Source: Aliishimia sp. (GTDB lineage: Bacteria; Pseudomonadota; Alphaproteobacteria; Rhodobacterales; Rhodobacteraceae). Taken from it: a stretch of 64,000 nt of DNA. Location of the stretch: NCBI GenBank assembly GCA_963678085.1, contig OY782680.1:2027406-2091405 (forward strand), given 5' to 3'. Position 1 is the first letter of the stretch, and every line of letters begins with the position of its first letter. The translations under genes and the position numbers were made by a program. The notes under the pieces were generated by a model. That model was given only the letters and a program-made list of their open reading frames with translations, was not told where the DNA came from and did not search any database. Below are positions 2,866-57,979 of the stretch, piece by piece.

Positions 2866-3414
2866 ATGAGAGCGGTGCGCTTTTTCCTTGTGATCTGCGC
2901 GCTGCTTTTTGGCGGCGCCGCAAATGCCCAGGCACCGCTGCAATTCCAAAGCCCGGTTCTTATTGCGGATTTGCAGCAGATCTACCTGCGCAGCGCGTTT
3001 GGCGTGCGTTTGGAGCAAGAGCGCGCCGCAGCTTGGGCGACGCTTGACGAGGAGAATGCACGCATTGGGAAAGAGCTCGAGGCAGAAGAGCTGCGTTTGA
3101 CGACGGAACGCGCATCGCTCTCGCCCGAAGAGTTTCGCGACAAAGCCGATGCTTTTGACGCCAAAGCGCGCGAAACTCGCCAAATCCAGCGCGAAAAAGC
3201 CATAGCACTGCAACAGCAATCCGATAAGATCCCGGCGGAATTTATCGCGGCAATCTCTCCGATCATGGAGGGCATCATGCGCGAAACCGGCGCGTTGGTG
3301 GTCCTTGATAAGCGGAACTCGCTATGGAGTGCAAATGTGGTTGACATCACGGATGAGGCGGTGCGCCGAATAGATGCACAGATCGGGGATGGGCAGGATC
3401 TGGTGGCCGAATAG
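2866..3414 (+). CDS. OmpH/Skp-family periplasmic chaperone
   Basis: 182 aa with signal peptide (..GGAANAQA) and a long charged coiled-coil-like body. Starts 4 nt after bamA. Confidence 0.8.
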   Translation: MRAVRFFLVICALLFGGAANAQAPLQFQSPVLIADLQQIYLRSAFGVRLEQERAAAWATLDEENARIGKELEAEELRLTTERASLSPEEFRDKADAFDAKARETRQIQREKAIALQQQSDKIPAEFIAAISPIMEGIMRETGALVVLDKRNSLWSANVVDITDEAVRRIDAQIGDGQDLVAE

Positions 3415-6659: not shown

Positions 6660-6705
6660 TACTGTGCGACGCTACGCGATGAACGAGTGAAAAAGGAATA
6701 GTCTT

Positions 6706-7242
6706 GTGGGAACATATATAGTTAGGGCAATCACCGCCGCTGGTTTGGCTATGGCGCTAAGCGGCCATGCTCAGGCTGAAGAGCGCAGATTGCAAGTAAA
6801 GCAGGGGCTTTGCATTGAGATGACAGAAGCCAATGGGCGAACGGCGATTGAGGTGGCCGAAGCTTCTCTTAGTTGTTTTGCAGAAGGAAAGCTTGAGCAA
6901 GGTTTGGAGCTCTTTGCTGCTGTCGAACTCTTTGAGTGGTATGACGAAAAGCGAATGAAACGTCATTTCAGCGTATCGCATATTAATGATTGGGTTTCTC
7001 GTGAGCTTGATGATATCATCGTAGACGATTTGGGGTTGGATAGCACTTTGAGGCCTAAACATGAGGAGTTGACAACAAACCGGCGCTGGATGCGCCAGCT
7101 ATGCGAGAACATCTCAAAGCTAGATCCTCCGCGCTATTGGCCAGACTATTTGGACGAGATAGACGGTCCAGCTCCGGATAACATTCCCGTTCACCCGGAG
7201 CTCTGGCGTTCTGTTGTGAGGGGCGGTTTGTGCCCGAGCTAG
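6706..7242 (+). CDS. Secreted hypothetical protein, tandem paralog A (4 conserved Cys)
   Basis: 178 aa, GTG start, signal peptide ending AQA|EE. Clearly paralogous to 7349-7882. Confidence 0.6.
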   Translation: MGTYIVRAITAAGLAMALSGHAQAEERRLQVKQGLCIEMTEANGRTAIEVAEASLSCFAEGKLEQGLELFAAVELFEWYDEKRMKRHFSVSHINDWVSRELDDIIVDDLGLDSTLRPKHEELTTNRRWMRQLCENISKLDPPRYWPDYLDEIDGPAPDNIPVHPELWRSVVRGGLCPS

Positions 7243-7348
7243 GTCCACTATTTGCGAAGCTGCCTGAAATGATGGCCTCTTTGACAAGCCGAGCAAAAAC
7301 GATCTACGCTCCGCTGACATCAAGCGCTTTGCAAAAAAGGGAAGCCTA

Positions 7349-7882
7349 ATGAAACAAAATCTGATTCGAGTGATCGGAGCCGCTGGTTTGGCTTTGGCAC
7401 TAGGTGGTCATGCCCAGGCTGAGGAGCGCAGATTGCAAGTCAAGCAAGGGCTTTGCATTGAGCTGACCGAGGCCAAAGGGCGTTCGGTCATTGAGCTGGC
7501 AGAGGCTTCGATCAGTTGTTTTGCTGAAGGGAAGCTAGAGCTAGGCCTTGAGATCTATGTAGCTGCTTCGGTTCGTGAGGAGTATGACGTAGAGCGAATG
7601 GAAGAATATTATGACACATTCGCTATAGATGGTTGGGTTTCTCGGGAAATAGAAGACATCATTGGTGACGATCTGGGCTTGGATAGCACTGTTGTCCCGA
7701 AAGCGGAGCAATTATTTGAAGATCCGCGCTGGGTGCGCCAGCAATGTGAGAACGTGACCAAGCTTGGCCTCCCGCGCTATTGGCCGGATTATCTTGAAGG
7801 GGTCGGTGAGGCTCCCGTGATTATACCTATTCACCCGCTCCTTTGGCTTGAGACTGTGTCGTCAACGATCTGCGAGGCTTAG
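7349..7882 (+). CDS. Secreted hypothetical protein, tandem paralog B (4 conserved Cys)
   Basis: 177 aa. ATG preceded by aaaagggaag. Signal peptide ending AQA|EE. Collinear with paralog A. Confidence 0.65.
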   Translation: MKQNLIRVIGAAGLALALGGHAQAEERRLQVKQGLCIELTEAKGRSVIELAEASISCFAEGKLELGLEIYVAASVREEYDVERMEEYYDTFAIDGWVSREIEDIIGDDLGLDSTVVPKAEQLFEDPRWVRQQCENVTKLGLPRYWPDYLEGVGEAPVIIPIHPLLWLETVSSTICEA

Positions 7883-10379: not shown

Positions 10380-11951
10380 TCACTCCCACTCAATCGTTCC
10401 GGGGGGTTTGGAGGTGATGTCATAGGTCACGCGGTTAATGCCGGGCACTTCATTGATGATGCGGGTTGCGGTTTCTGATAGGAACGCGTGGCTGAACGGG
10501 TAATAATCGGCCGTCATCCCATCCACCGAGGTCACGGCCCGAAGCGCGCAGGCATAATCATAGGTGCGCCCATCGCCCATCACGCCGACCGTGCGCACGG
10601 GCAGGATCGCGCAAAAGGCCTGCCAGATCTCATCATAAAGCCCGTGTTTGCGGATTTGCTCGATATAGACCGCATCGGCCTGCCGCAAAATGTCCAGCTT
10701 AGCGCGGGTAATTTCACCGGGGCAGCGAATGGCCAAACCCGGCCCCGGAAACGGGTGACGCCCAATGAAAGTGGCGGGCAGGCCCAGCTCACGGCCCAAA
10801 GCGCGCACCTCGTCCTTAAAGAGCTCGCGTAGCGGTTCCACCAGCTTCAGCCCCATCTTTTCCGGCAATCCGCCGACATTATGATGCGATTTGATGGTGA
10901 CAGAGGGGCCGCCAGAAAAGCTCACGCTTTCAATCACATCGGGGTAGAGCGTGCCTTGGGCGAGAAATTCCGCCCCCTCAATCTGGTCGGCGTATTTTTG
11001 GAACACATCAATAAAGAGGCCACCGATGATCTTGCGCTTGGTTTCAGGATCCGATTGCCCATCCAGCGCGCCAAGGAATAGCTCGCTCTCATCGGCATGG
11101 ATCACATGCAGGTTCATATGATCGCGGAACATGGTGACGACTTCTGTCGCCTCATCCTTGCGCAAAAGGCCATGATCCACAAAAACGCAGGTGAGCTGAT
11201 CGCCGATCGCCTCATGGATAAGCGCCGCCGTGACCGAGCTATCAACCCCGCCCGAAAGCCCGCAAATCACCTTAGCCTCACCGACCTGGGCGCGAATGGC
11301 GGCGATGGCTTGGTCCTTATAACCAGCCATGGTCCAATCGCGCGCGAAACCAGCCAGAGTCACGAAGTTTTCAAATAGGGTGCTGCCGCCGGGCGTGTGA
11401 TGCACTTCGGGGTGAAATTGCACGGCGTAAAACTGGCGGGCAGGATCGCCGGTAATGGCATAGGGTGCGTTGGGCGAGGTGCCATAGACCTCAAAGCCAG
11501 GGGCCAGCTCTGCCACATGATCGCCGTGTGACATCCAAACTTGCTCATCGCCATTTGTAAACCACCCCTTGAGCAGCTGGGTTTCAGCGCTCGCGGTGAC
11601 ATAGGCGCGGCCAAATTCCGCAGTGCCGCCGCCACCGGAAATCTTGCCGCCTTTGATCTGTCCGCCCAGCTCATGCATCATGACCTGTTGACCATAACAG
11701 ATGCCAAGGATGGGAATACCAAGGCTATAAAGCCCCTCGGGTGTTCGGGGTGAGCCTTCCCGCGTGACACTATCAGGCCCGCCCGATAGGATCACCGCCT
11801 TGGGCGCGAGCTGCGTAAGTCGCTCTTTGGTGACGTTTTGATAGGGGTGGATTTCGCAATAGACATTCAACTCGCGCAGGCGCCGCGCAATAAGCTGCGT
11901 GACCTGTGAGCCAAAGTCGATGATGAGCAAGAGTTCTTCTGATCTGGACAT
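10380..11951 (-). CDS. guaA: GMP synthase (glutamine-hydrolysing)
   Basis: 523 aa. GATase-1 N-domain (ILGICYGQQ), ATP-PPase SGGVDSS motif, C-terminal ..PPGTIEWE. Confidence 0.97.
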
Positions 11952-12024
11952 GCGCCCCCATAAAGCGGGCTGGCGCGTATCGCAAGGTGGTTCAGATTTT
12001 CACGCAGAGGGCAATCAGCAACGG

Positions 12025-12424
12025 GCACGCCAAAAAGCCCCGCGTGGCTCAATTCCACCGGAGTTGCACATATATAAAGGAAGATTAGCATTCGGACAGG
12101 GAACGGGCCCGTCAGACATCGATGAACACTGCGTGTCAATAGCAGTGAACCGGTGGTTGCTCATCATTTTCCTATCCGCGCCATCGTGACGAAAGAGATC
12201 TTAGTAGGTGCCACTACACCCGTGCTCCAGCCACATTGACAGCGCGCGTCTTAGAAGCTTCGTGCGAGGAGTTCTACGCGGGATTGGTTAAGATTGCGTG
12301 AGGGGAGCGTGCGGTGGCACCTGGAAACGCAGTCCAGCGCCGTGGGGGTTTTGCACCCCCACACCCCCGCCCCGTATCAAATAAGGTATTTTTAGCCAAA
12401 TGAAGGGGGCGCGCCGGGTTGAGG
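12025..12424. repeat. Copy 1 of a ~380-400 nt non-coding repeat (direct copy of 57481-57860)
   Basis: By direct base comparison 12071-12169 equals 57527-57625 (99 nt) and 12225-12305 equals 57680-57760 (81 nt). No frame is open in both copies. Lies between divergent guaA and pepP. Confidence 0.9.
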
Positions 12425-12534
12425 CTTGGGCAAGATCTGTCTTGGTTGTGCTTTGCTACAGCTTATTGAAAACCCAATTGCTCGCCTGAGCGCAGCCGCC
12501 TATGTTCGGGAAAGATGAACTCTTGGGAGGCATT

Positions 12535-14328
12535 ATGTTTCAAAACTTTGAGGTGACAGCGCGGCCAGAGCAGGGCCCGCCCCGGTTGGCGCAGCTGCGC
12601 GCGCTTATGCAGGCCGAGGGTTTGGCTGGGTTTTTGGTGCCACGCGCCGATGCGCATCAGGGGGAATATGTGGCCCCGCGCGATGACCGGCTGGCTTGGC
12701 TGACCGGATTTACTGGCTCTGCGGGATTTTGCGCTGCACTGCTGGAAGTGGCCGGGGTGTTTGTGGATGGGCGCTATCGCACGCAGGTCAAATCGCAGGT
12801 GGATTTAGCCCATTTCACGCCTCAGGATTCGCTCAATACCCCGCTTGGTACCTGGCTGAAAGAGCAGCTGCCCGAGGGCGGCAAGATCGGCTTTGATCCC
12901 TGGCTTTATACCACGGGCCAGATGGAGACCTTGATAGGCGAACTTGACGGCAGCGCGATTGAGCTTGAGCCTTGCGCCAACCTCATTGACCAGATCTGGC
13001 CCGATCAACCGCCCGCGCCGGATGCACCTGTAAGCGCGCATCCCATAGAATTTGCGGGGCAGAGCCATGCATCAAAGCGAGATCAATTGGGGAAAGGTCT
13101 TGCAAAATCAGGTCACTCTGCAGCGATCCTCACCTTACCTGATAGCATTTGCTGGTTGCTCAATATTCGCGGCGCAGATATTCCGTGCAACCCTGTGTGC
13201 CATGCCTTTGCGATCCTGCATGCAAGCGGGGCGGTGGATTTGTTTATCGAGCCGAGCAAGCTTGTCGATCTGGGGGATCATCTGGGGCCAGAGGTCGCGA
13301 TCCATGCCCCAAGTGGCTTTATGGAGGCTGTCGCCGCGCTAGAGGGCAAGGTTCTGGTTGATAAACAGAGCATTCCGGTGCTGATCACAGGGGTCTTGGG
13401 CGAGCGGGCCGTGCTTGGGCAAGACCCTTGTGCGCTGCCCAAAGCGTGCAAGAATAGTGCCGAGATTGAGGGCGCGGTGCAGGCGCATCTGCGCGATGGG
13501 GCGGCGATTGTGGAGCTGTTGGCCTGGCTGGATGCGCAAGCCCCTGGAAGTCTTACCGAGATTGATGTGGTCAAGCGGCTTGAGGCGTTCCGCCGGCAAG
13601 ATAACAAGCTGCGCAATATTTCTTTTGAGACCATTTCGGGCACTGGGCCAAATGGCGCGATCATGCATTACCGGGTGAGCGAAGAGAGCAATGCAACGCT
13701 AGAGGAGGGACATTTGTTGGTACTGGATTCCGGTGGGCAATATCTGGATGGCACCACCGATATCACCCGCACCATTGCGATTGGCAGCCCTGGCGAGGAA
13801 GAGCGCGCCTGTTTTACCCGTGTGTTGCAAGGCATGATTGGGATGTCGCGGCTGCGCTGGCCCAAGGGGCTGGGCGGGGCGCATATTGAAATGCTCGGGC
13901 GCTTGCCACTTTGGATGGCCGGGCAGGATTTTGATCATGGGCTTGGGCACGGGGTTGGGGCTTATCTGAGTGTACATGAGGGGCCGCAGCGGCTGAGCCG
14001 GGCCTCAACCCTGCCTTTGCAACCGGGTATGATCCTGTCGAACGAGCCAGGCTATTACCGTGAGGGGGCCTTTGGCATTCGCATCGAAAACCTGCTGGTG
14101 GTGAAAGAGGCAGAGGCTCTGGCGGGCGGTGATGATCATCGCGATATGCTGGATTGGCAGACGCTTACCCTGGCCCCGATTGACCGGCGTTTGATTGTGC
14201 CAGAAATTCTAAGCCCTGAAGAGCGCGCTTGGCTCAATGCCTATCATGGCGAGGTGCAGGCGAAACTCTCCGGGCTTGTCTCAGAGGGTGCTGCCCGCTG
14301 GCTTGCCAAGGCCTGTGCGCCTCTTTAG
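12535..14328 (+). CDS. pepP: Xaa-Pro aminopeptidase (M24B, aminopeptidase P family)
   Basis: M24 metal-ligand motifs (DSGGQY.., HGLGHGVG, SNEPGYY, IRIENL). ATG at 12535 follows GGGAGG. The ORF-track start is 12502. Confidence 0.85.
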   Translation: MFQNFEVTARPEQGPPRLAQLRALMQAEGLAGFLVPRADAHQGEYVAPRDDRLAWLTGFTGSAGFCAALLEVAGVFVDGRYRTQVKSQVDLAHFTPQDSLNTPLGTWLKEQLPEGGKIGFDPWLYTTGQMETLIGELDGSAIELEPCANLIDQIWPDQPPAPDAPVSAHPIEFAGQSHASKRDQLGKGLAKSGHSAAILTLPDSICWLLNIRGADIPCNPVCHAFAILHASGAVDLFIEPSKLVDLGDHLGPEVAIHAPSGFMEAVAALEGKVLVDKQSIPVLITGVLGERAVLGQDPCALPKACKNSAEIEGAVQAHLRDGAAIVELLAWLDAQAPGSLTEIDVVKRLEAFRRQDNKLRNISFETISGTGPNGAIMHYRVSEESNATLEEGHLLVLDSGGQYLDGTTDITRTIAIGSPGEEERACFTRVLQGMIGMSRLRWPKGLGGAHIEMLGRLPLWMAGQDFDHGLGHGVGAYLSVHEGPQRLSRASTLPLQPGMILSNEPGYYREGAFGIRIENLLVVKEAEALAGGDDHRDMLDWQTLTLAPIDRRLIVPEILSPEERAWLNAYHGEVQAKLSGLVSEGAARWLAKACAPL

Positions 14329-14853: not shown

Positions 14854-14930
14854 TGGTACCGCCTCCCTGGCTTGAACAGGGGACCTCTGGATCCACAATC
14901 CAGCGCTCTAACCAACTGAGCTAAGGCGGC
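14854..14930 (-). tRNA. tRNA-His (anticodon GUG), no encoded G-1
   Basis: Hand-folded cloverleaf: acceptor GCCGCCU/AGGCGGU (G1-U72), D arm GCUC/GAGC, anticodon arm CUGGA-UUGUGGA-UCCAG, T arm CCCUG-UUCAAGC-CAGGG, A73, encoded CCA. 77 nt. Confidence 0.9.
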
Positions 14931-57462: not shown

Positions 57463-57480
57463 TGTCGGGTAAAGAGATGG

Positions 57481-57860
57481 GCACGACAAAAGCCCCCGCA
57501 TGGAGCCATTCCACCGGAGTTTTGCATATATAAAGGAAGATTAGCATTCGGACAGGGAACGGGCCCGTCAGACATCGATGAACACTGCGTGTCAATAGCA
57601 GTGAACCGGTGGTTGCTCATCATTTCCTATCCGCGCCATCGTGACGAAAGAGAACTTAGCCAGGCTCCACATGCCCATGCTCCAGCCACATTGACAGCGC
57701 GCGTCTTAGAAGCTTCGTGCGAGGAGTTCTACGCGGGATTGGTTAAGATTGCGTGAGGGGTGCGTGCGCGGGGTTAAGGACTGGTTTCCGAGTGGGGGTT
57801 TTGCACCCCCACACCCCCGCAAGGTATTTTTAGCCAAATGAAGGGGGCGCCGGGTTGAGG
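57481..57860. repeat. Copy 2 of the ~380-400 nt non-coding repeat (direct copy of 12025-12424)
   Basis: See copy 1. Lies between the convergent formate dehydrogenase alpha gene and bhcD. Confidence 0.9.
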
Positions 57861-57979
57861 GATTTGCGACGCTGCAAGGCATTGATATGGTTTATTTTCT
57901 TGCGATTTACCAAGCGCGCGGCTGGGGGAGGCTCCCCCTCGCGCATGCGCGCTGGGCAGGAAATTTGCGGGTTTCGGTT

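Follow-up and report, generated by a model that had tools for sequence, protein, structure and literature searches.

We examined a 64,000-nt stretch of the Aliishimia sp. chromosome (contig OY782680.1 of assembly GCA_963678085.1, positions 2,027,406 to 2,091,405 of the forward strand; below, the window), which contains two similar intergenic elements 45 kb apart, copy A at 12023-12424 (402 nt) and copy B at 57479-57860 (382 nt). The reading we favor, to which we assign a probability of roughly 50%, is that A and B are two copies of a dispersed intergenic repeat, mosaic and non-coding, that is restricted to one lineage. Alignment within and between genomes shows that each copy can be resolved into an orphan core and a 3' cluster of hairpin units. 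This cluster would comprise, in order, a small hairpin that occurs in either orientation and lies in a variable block (V2), a G5/C5 hairpin, and a C5...G5 stem around the AT-rich box GGTATTTTTnGCCAA(G)ATGAAGG. The last two units (the G5/C5 hairpin and the boxed stem; together, the 3' module) represent a family that is shared across Rhodobacterales and is also found without the core.

The two copies are direct repeats, as established by MAFFT alignment and by direct base comparison, and differ in 59 of 402 alignment columns (85.3% identity). These differences are strongly clustered: identical runs extend over 98, 83, 31, 29 and 26 alignment columns, whereas in 20,000 permutations of the 59 difference positions, the longest run averaged 28.5 columns and reached 79 at most, so that the patchiness is not due to chance. 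An earlier description of this DNA, generated by a model from the letters alone (the sequence-only reading), had proposed two copies in the same orientation with non-uniform divergence, and both proposals are borne out. Its block-by-block comparison was likewise reproduced in full, including the indels of 1, 2 and 12 nt between the copies.

From left to right on the plus strand, the first 47 nt of the element (12023-12069 in A, 57479-57525 in B) are ~80% identical, with scattered substitutions and two slippage-type 2-nt shifts, in a TT run and in a CA repeat. Core block 1 (12070-12169 = 57526-57625) follows, with 99/99 identity over 12071-12169 = 57527-57625, as previously reported, and 100/100 when begun one base earlier; it encloses the hairpin CACTGC-GTGTCAATA-GCAGTG. 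Core block 2 (12170-12204, with 34/35 identical positions) comes after a 1-nt indel in a T run and holds a perfect 28-mer (12171-12198 = 57626-57653, 28/28); in B, the 5' segment and core blocks 1 and 2 together occupy 57479-57659. The first variable block, V1 (12205-12224 in A, 57660-57679 in B), is of equal length in the two copies and matches at 8/20 positions without gaps. Core block 3 (12225-12305 = 57680-57760) is identical at 81/81 positions, or at 83/83 when counted from 12223, and is succeeded by V2, which spans 36 nt in A (12306-12341) and 31 nt in B (57761-57791). The 3' module closes the element at 12342-12424 in A and 57792-57860 in B, with two further identical stretches at 12342-12370 (29/29) and 12383-12408 (26/26). 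We found no third copy or fragment within the window. The G+C content of the element (56%) is close to that of the window (55.5%). We also observed the short perfect palindromes ACGGGCCCGT, CATCGATG and GAAGCTTC within the core blocks (12070-12305), to which we gave no weight because a rough calculation puts their count near the chance expectation for 320 nt.

The variable blocks turned out to be less arbitrary than they appeared at first reading. V2 had been described as fully replaced between the copies; this is not the case, as the same hairpin is present in inverted form. Specifically, GGAAACGCAGTCC (12323-12335) in V2 of copy A is the reverse complement of GGACTGGTTTCC (57778-57789) in V2 of copy B at 12 of 13 bases, that is, GGAAAC(G)CAGTCC, a level of similarity reached by 2 of 2000 shuffles, whereas the direct alignment of V2 is at chance. 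This comparison shows one small hairpin (CTGGA-AACGCAG-TCCAG at 12321-12337 in A) lying in opposite orientations in the two copies. The first eight V2 bases, (A/T)GCGTGCG, in addition align directly. The 8/20 block, V1, had been taken for a copy-specific module, but aligns at ~67% given two compensating 1-nt indels (~16/24 when aligned by hand, allowing an insertion of one base after TAG and a deletion of one after CCAC). In copy A, V1 carries AGGTGCCAC (12206-12214), a perfect 9/9 complement of GTGGCACCT (12315-12323) in V2 of the same copy, again matched by 2 of 2000 shuffles, for which copy B has no equivalent. In copy B, V1 begins with CCAGGCTCCA (57660-57669), which repeats the adjoining conserved CCATGCTCCA (57675-57684); a 9/11 match between V1 of B and the complement of V2 of A is not significant. 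These relationships show V1 as apparently templated by its own neighborhood. The remaining differences between A and B are of the slippage type (TTTT/TTT, GCGCGCC/GCGCC, and the TT and CA shifts in the 5' decamer).

The 3' module is the part of the element for which relatives could be found. In copy A, the hairpin GTGGGGGT-TTTGC-ACCCCCAC (12342-12362) is followed by a C5 run and by an insertion of 12 nt (12371-12382); next come the AT-rich box AAGGTATTTTTAGCCAAATGAAGG (12383-12406) and a G run, and the tail has GGGTTGAGG at its end. The two modules are identical in hairpin and box, and the insertion, present in A only, resembles a shortened duplicate of the box (GTAT...CAAAT). More generally, the module follows a fixed plan, namely, a G5-loop-C5 hairpin, a single A, a C5 run, 2-4 nt, the box (G)GTATTTTTnGCCAAGATGAAGG, and a G run able to pair with C5. 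The family can be written as the pattern G5-loop-C5, A, C5, 2-4 nt, (G)GTATTTTTnGCCAA(G)ATGAAGG, G run, or, in brief, as G5-loop-C5, A, C5, GGTATTTTTnGCCAAGATGAAGG, G run; the box in A and B is one G shorter than that of the family. Copy A from 12342 to 12412 and copy B from 57792 to 57850 align over the full module with seven loci fetched from other genomes and contigs (L001, L040, L041, L042, L013, L017 and L032). The closest of these, at the end of contig L001 (positions 1-51), is 49/51 (96%) identical to copy B (57792-57842), and the hairpin-closing pair is T-A in one and C-G in the other, a compensatory change. This identity of 96% is observed between species with PepP proteins that are only 86% identical (window versus L001).

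Several lines of evidence indicate that this similarity reflects a genuine family. Across nine sequences, the module hairpin comprises 8 bp, of which 3/8 pairs have changed on both sides; pairing is retained in 93% of cells, compared with 87% in shuffles, none of which (0/500) reached 93%, and when the 3' partners were slid by 1-3 columns as a control, at most 68% of cells were paired. A profile of the box recovered copies B and A with E values of 4e-9 and 8e-8, respectively, these two being themselves among the 15 sequences used to build the profile. BLASTN of the 69-nt module against plasmids produced a match in Paracoccus liaowanqingii (86% identity over 57 nt, E 4e-8), along with marginal matches in plasmids of Ruegeria, Loktanella and Sagittula (E 0.04 to 6) that have the same architecture on reading the sequences; the module copies in these plasmid matches are always intergenic and unannotated. 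A scan of species-representative genomes with a loosened box pattern yielded six occurrences in Rhodobacter ruber, one in R. kunshanensis, and six in two metagenome-assembled genomes (MAGs) of Paracoccaceae, although the pattern used, GGTATTTTTNNCNAANATGAAGG, is one base longer than the box of the present genome and hence retrieves the wider family rather than exact relatives. In viral contigs, the module is rare, with two matches.

Outside the present genome, the module stands alone, in units of ~25-90 nt without the core, for example, at L001 1-55 on the minus strand, L040 1501-1557, L041 ~1495-1545, L042 ~590-650 and L043 ~600-650, as well as in Rhodobacter and Paracoccaceae loci (L005-L038). 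By a crude open reading frame (ORF) call, ~8/13 module copies lie between convergent ORFs. Just upstream of the box, other genomes carry a variable set of G+C-rich hairpins, and V2 would be the corresponding variable, orientation-free hairpin that the module family usually has at that position. In three loci (L014 ~1670-1826, L018 on the minus strand and L035 ~3010-3168, from R. ruber, R. kunshanensis and a Paracoccaceae MAG), the ~155 nt lying upstream of the box exceed the usual module in length, are 85-87% identical and may represent either an extended version of the repeat that is conserved or the conserved end of a gene. Taken together, these comparisons show the 3' module to be a member of a hairpin-plus-box repeat family distributed across Rhodobacterales (Paracoccus, Rhodobacter and many Roseobacteraceae). 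[quoted passage not shown] The module family is of more general reach than the composite repeat itself, to which it is a by-product. The sequence-only reading had left the entire element unassigned, which remains accurate for the ~320-nt core but not for the 3' 70-85 nt.

By the searches performed here, the core, ~285-320 nt in length (from 12023 to ~12305-12341), is an orphan with no relative in any collection searched. BLASTN of the element against 72,556 plasmids and 50,697 phages gave no match for the core; an exact 22-mer core word, GATTAGCATTCGGACAGGGAAC, had no matches in the genome collection, and neither did an exact 21-mer word, GAAGCTTCGTGCGAGGAGTTC, in metagenomes and IMG/VR, the words having been taken from both perfect blocks. 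Six degenerate 24-nt seeds distributed across the conserved blocks, derived from a pseudo-protein (the translated open frames of these blocks), led to no confirmed relative in either the metagenome or the viral scan, and the six-frame pseudo-protein of the core found nothing at E<=1 among 5.8 billion predicted proteins. The core is also absent from the 8-kb module-bearing loci of other Rhodobacterales. In Rfam 15, the core had no match at the gathering threshold in the scan of the window and none at E<=10 on both copies, the sole match above threshold in the window being the tRNA at 14857-14930; over the element, the best sub-threshold scores were 9-21 bits, compared with thresholds of 38-80. 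The statement that the core belongs to no recognized RNA or insertion sequence (IS) family thus holds, and no Rfam family was found for the element as a whole. All these comparisons are limited by the poor sampling of the source lineage within Roseobacteraceae: among PepP relatives, the closest is encoded in L001, a 6.5-kb Joint Genome Institute (JGI) metagenome contig (86%), and all others, from Aliishimia, Sulfitobacter, Tateyamaria and similar genera, are at <=72%.

Under the scenario we favor, the backbone of the element (~12066-12424) would be young or recently homogenized, with an older 5' end left at ~80-85% identity. The variable patches would then represent single multi-base DNA events at hairpins, superimposed on the usual modular variability of such clusters, rather than programmed, copy-specific functional modules; they could have arisen by inversion of a hairpin, by a template switch between V1 and V2, by slippage within runs of T, GC and CA, or by duplication of part of the box. 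Spread of the repeat might be mediated by an enzyme acting in trans and recognizing the hairpin ends, or by recombination; alternatively, the core could target pre-existing modules, an option suggested by the 5' edge of the module, which falls at the same base in A, B and the solo L001 copy. Any effect on the cell would probably be the generic one of REP-like hairpins; copy B would exert it in the fdh operon's 3' untranslated region and copy A within the guaA/pepP promoter region.

Several observations weigh against this scenario. Two copies have been seen, and the designation as a dispersed repeat rests on these together with the behavior of the 3' module; no mobilizing enzyme was identified. 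Alternatively, the 100-nt and 83-nt blocks could be perfect because a functional site in RNA or DNA is under strong purifying selection. The p-values for the V2 inversion and the V1:V2 complement (~0.001 each) come from eight comparisons of very short strings and are accordingly suggestive, not decisive. Furthermore, copy A has the 9-bp V1:V2 complement, and copy B has a weaker pairing, CUUAGCC/GGUUAAG; both are as might be expected of a long-range helix whose sequence changes.

This last point leads directly to the interpretation preferred in the sequence-only reading, that is, paralogous genes for small or structured RNAs, with the perfect blocks as a scaffold under selection and V1 and V2 as segments for recognition or helix formation that can be exchanged. 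We consider this interpretation unlikely. The direct abutment of very long perfect blocks and variable ones is what such genes could produce, the 9-bp complement in copy A encloses the conserved 81-nt block, and a weak minus-strand hairpin followed by a T run is present at the left end of copy B. However, fold energies on both strands, for the whole element as well as for halves and sub-regions, do not differ from those of dinucleotide shuffles (z from -1.3 to +2.2); the V1:V2 duplex of copy B is worse than 396 of 500 shuffles; cross-copy V1:V2 duplexes are as stable as those within a copy; and between the two copies, no V1:V2 covariation is demonstrable and no pairing is conserved in both. 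Scans of the element detected neither a sigma-70-type promoter nor a canonical terminator, and motifs for sigma-54, EcfG and RpoH promoters, judged by eye, had no match there. Added to this are the lack of any Rfam match down to E=10, the failure to find the core outside this genome in the collections searched, and the opposite relations of A and B to their neighboring genes. A search for sites matching the variable blocks, which a guide function would imply, was run with V1, V2 and the insertion against the window and the fetched loci and produced only 11-14-nt matches, at chance level. Overall, then, the structured-RNA, scaffold or guide interpretation finds no support. A more specific version strikes us as very unlikely. 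In it, the core would be a non-coding device, of RNA or DNA, that is peculiar to this lineage and combines a fixed scaffold with the exchangeable V1 and V2, paired with each other in copy A; it could be a stand-alone guide- or bridge-type RNA, or a mini-element, that recognizes the REP-like module, with an effector encoded elsewhere and copies of different specificities. We found no TnpB, IscB or IS110-type gene, the effector expected beside an omega RNA or bridge RNA, in the element or the 64-kb window, and no match to the Rfam HEARO or omega-RNA-type families. The sequence-only reading had itself named a clear match to a known family such as REP, or a lack of both transcription and conservation outside this strain, as grounds for abandoning its more exciting interpretation; the REP-type match of the 3' part and the failure to see the core outside the strain weaken that interpretation. 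If the core were a transcribed scaffold with variable segments, it would merit experimental work, but nothing we found points in that direction.

Two further explanations concern how the copies arose, and we regard each as rather improbable. One holds that the core is a separate non-autonomous mobile unit that inserts beside pre-existing REP-like modules, with V2 as the junction sequence. There are precedents for such targeting: IS1397, ISKpn1 and several IS110-family members target REP sequences. Consistent with insertion, GTGGGGG forms the exact 5' edge of the module in A, in B and in the solo L001 copy, with unrelated sequence upstream of it in L001 and variable sequence between A and B; element A lies at a synteny break (gatB-pepP in L001 versus guaA-element-pepP here); and the element lacks terminal inverted repeats and target-site duplications, as do IS110 and IS200/IS605-type elements. 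Nevertheless, no recombinase or transposase gene was found in the 64 kb, only two copies are known, the left flanks share no common target motif (AGCAAC versus AGAGAT), and the identical hairpin and box of A and B are explained equally well by duplication of the unit. The other explanation, an old duplication kept identical in patches by repeated gene conversion across 45 kb, with the variable blocks as heterology that was not crossed, fits the direct orientation of both copies on the same replicon, and the transition from ~80% identity over the 5' 47 nt to a perfect 100 nt resembles the end of a conversion tract. As a rule, however, RecA-mediated conversion tracts take short heterologies with them and require identity over tens of bases at both ends, which makes it unlikely that a 20-nt island would be flanked by independent tracts of 26-35 nt, and the V blocks show an inversion, a complement and a repeat of neighboring sequence rather than old random divergence. 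Gene conversion, which the sequence-only reading had offered for the core, thus agrees poorly, on its own, with islands of 20 nt between perfect blocks of 28 nt and 81 nt, but may account for the step from ~80% to 100% at 12066-12070.

The hallmarks of genes and of classical mobile elements were sought as well. The left end of the element matches the reverse complement of its right end no better than shuffles do (126/300 for A, 58/300 for B), the two copies have no inverted pair in common, and the flanks (AGCAAC and CTTGGG for A, AGAGAT and GATTTG for B) contain no target-site duplication, in agreement with what the sequence-only reading had stated. It had also described the element as non-coding, and indeed none of the reading frames stays open through the entire element in both A and B, and protein relatives are lacking. 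One candidate is an ORF on the minus strand, 12167-12015 (50 aa) in A and 57623-57438 (61 aa) in B, which is open in both copies with identical first 33 residues and has an AGGA motif 5 nt upstream of its second ATG. That it encodes a small protein is nonetheless extremely unlikely: in the 17 aligned codons after residue 33, every difference is non-synonymous, and the ends differ; a word-indexed search of 5.8 billion proteins found no relative; and a full HMMER scan of the 61-aa ORF against 1.84 billion representatives returned only three weak, compositional multi-stretch matches (E~1e-4) to proteins of 950-1280 aa. Moreover, the search found no ORF over the core among the 5.8 billion predicted proteins, a collection that does contain the PepP and BhcD of this genome at 100% identity. 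The non-synonymous differences and the lack of relatives effectively refute a protein-coding interpretation, and the element is neither a gene nor a recognizable pseudogene. Finally, direct repeats flanking 45 kb, with a tRNA gene 2.4 kb inside, invite the idea that A and B are the attL and attR sites of an integrated element. We give this idea next to no credence: the interval consists of housekeeping genes (rplU, obg, proB, proA, rpsB, tsf, sodB, accBC, clpXP, ilvC and fdh) with no integrase, and the G+C content is uniform, so that the att-site or island interpretation is refuted by gene content.

The genomic setting of the two copies is unremarkable. ORF positions confirm that both are intergenic: copy A occupies a divergent promoter region, at a distance of 72 nt upstream of guaA and of 110 nt upstream of pepP, and copy B lies between convergent genes, beginning 17 nt past the fdh-alpha stop codon and stopping 120 nt short of that of bhcD. 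The placement of the element relative to its neighboring genes is therefore not fixed. To the left of A, the window contains, in order, bamA, ompH, fabZ, lpxA, lpxI, lpxB, two unknown paralogues, a methyltransferase gene and guaA. Between A and B are pepP, a DUF427 gene, the tRNA, rplU, obg, proB, proA, rpsB, tsf, sodB and a sensor kinase gene, followed by a Liv-type ABC transporter, accBC, clpXP, ilvC, two Lrp genes, a GGDEF gene and the formate dehydrogenase subunits; bhcDCBA and bhcR lie to the right of B. The window is ordinary core chromosome, and the 45 kb between the copies is no island. Within these 64 kb, we found no integrase, transposase, reverse transcriptase, recombinase, TnpA, TnpB, IscB, or IS110-type or DEDD recombinase gene, and no gene for a REP-associated tyrosine transposase (RAYT), in line with the earlier statement that there is no transposase nearby. 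Compared with L001, synteny breaks exactly at element A (window 11951-12535 versus L001 3041-3120): in L001, gatB is located 78 nt ahead of pepP, whereas here guaA is divergent from pepP, with element A in between. Neither gatB nor the L001 gene downstream of DUF427 is present in the window. The element is absent from the site upstream of pepP in L001, where the upstream gene differs, and from L039, a relative picked via BhcD, a protein too conserved for picking out close relatives. The position of element A at the break fits the notion that such repeats act as recombination substrates.

Two features in the vicinity are noted as separate observations. In the interval from lpxB to an unknown 331-aa ORF, there is a tandem pair of paralogous ORFs (6706-7242, 178 aa, and 7349-7882, 177 aa), neither with a Pfam match; the underlying DNA (6690-7154 versus 7333-7797) repeats with a 643-nt period at 71-76% identity. 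Outside element B, 40 nt downstream of the bhcD stop codon on the minus strand, a G+C-rich hairpin, GGGGGAGGCTCCCCC (57924-57940), is probably the terminator of the bhc operon.

Taken alone, the finding changes little: it adds one more orphan mosaic intergenic repeat, in which modules that looked scrambled can be understood through inversion of a hairpin, templating from neighboring sequence and slippage. What is new about the core is its sequence rather than its type, and comparison with known repeats places the element as follows. MITEs and non-autonomous derivatives of IS200/IS605 or IS110 elements are similar in that they are ~400 nt in size, non-coding, and present in more than one copy, and the IS200/IS605 and IS110 types also lack terminal inverted repeats and target-site duplications and have terminal or subterminal hairpins; unlike MITEs, however, the element does not display the classical hallmarks for which it was tested, and no parent element, TnpA, TnpB or DEDD recombinase is found in the window. 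The BOX repeats of Streptococcus pneumoniae (boxA-B-C) and the enterobacterial repetitive intergenic consensus (ERIC) sequences share the composite nature, with modules present, absent or rearranged, and are non-coding without a transposase, but their taxa and sequences are unrelated, and BOX varies by the copy number of boxB, not by hairpin inversion.

Two other groups can be compared as well. The Rhizobium-specific intergenic mosaic elements (RIME) and the Sinorhizobium Sm-repeats are alphaproteobacterial intergenic mosaics of conserved blocks, palindromes and variable internal segments, ~100-180 bp long. The element resembles them in its mosaic intergenic plan, while RIME and Sm-repeats are shorter; this likeness is one of description. 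REP sequences and the bacterial interspersed mosaic elements (BIMEs) that they form in enterobacteria and pseudomonads are intergenic as well, built from G+C-rich hairpin units in either orientation with variable linkers, maintained in structure by compensatory changes, often located at 3' ends or between convergent genes, and devoid of terminal inverted repeats and target-site duplications. The short G+C-rich palindrome of conserved structure that characterizes REP/BIME is present in the 3' module only. There are also clear differences: the sequences are unrelated, the module hairpins begin with GTGG, GCGG or CCGG and have no GTAG/CGTC tag at the hairpin foot, the module has a conserved ~25-nt AT-rich box that REPs lack, and the element includes a 320-nt non-palindromic core. 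The kinds closest to the element are REP/BIME, the RIME and Sm repeats of rhizobia, and repeats of modular build such as BOX, and the likeness is one of architecture, not of sequence.

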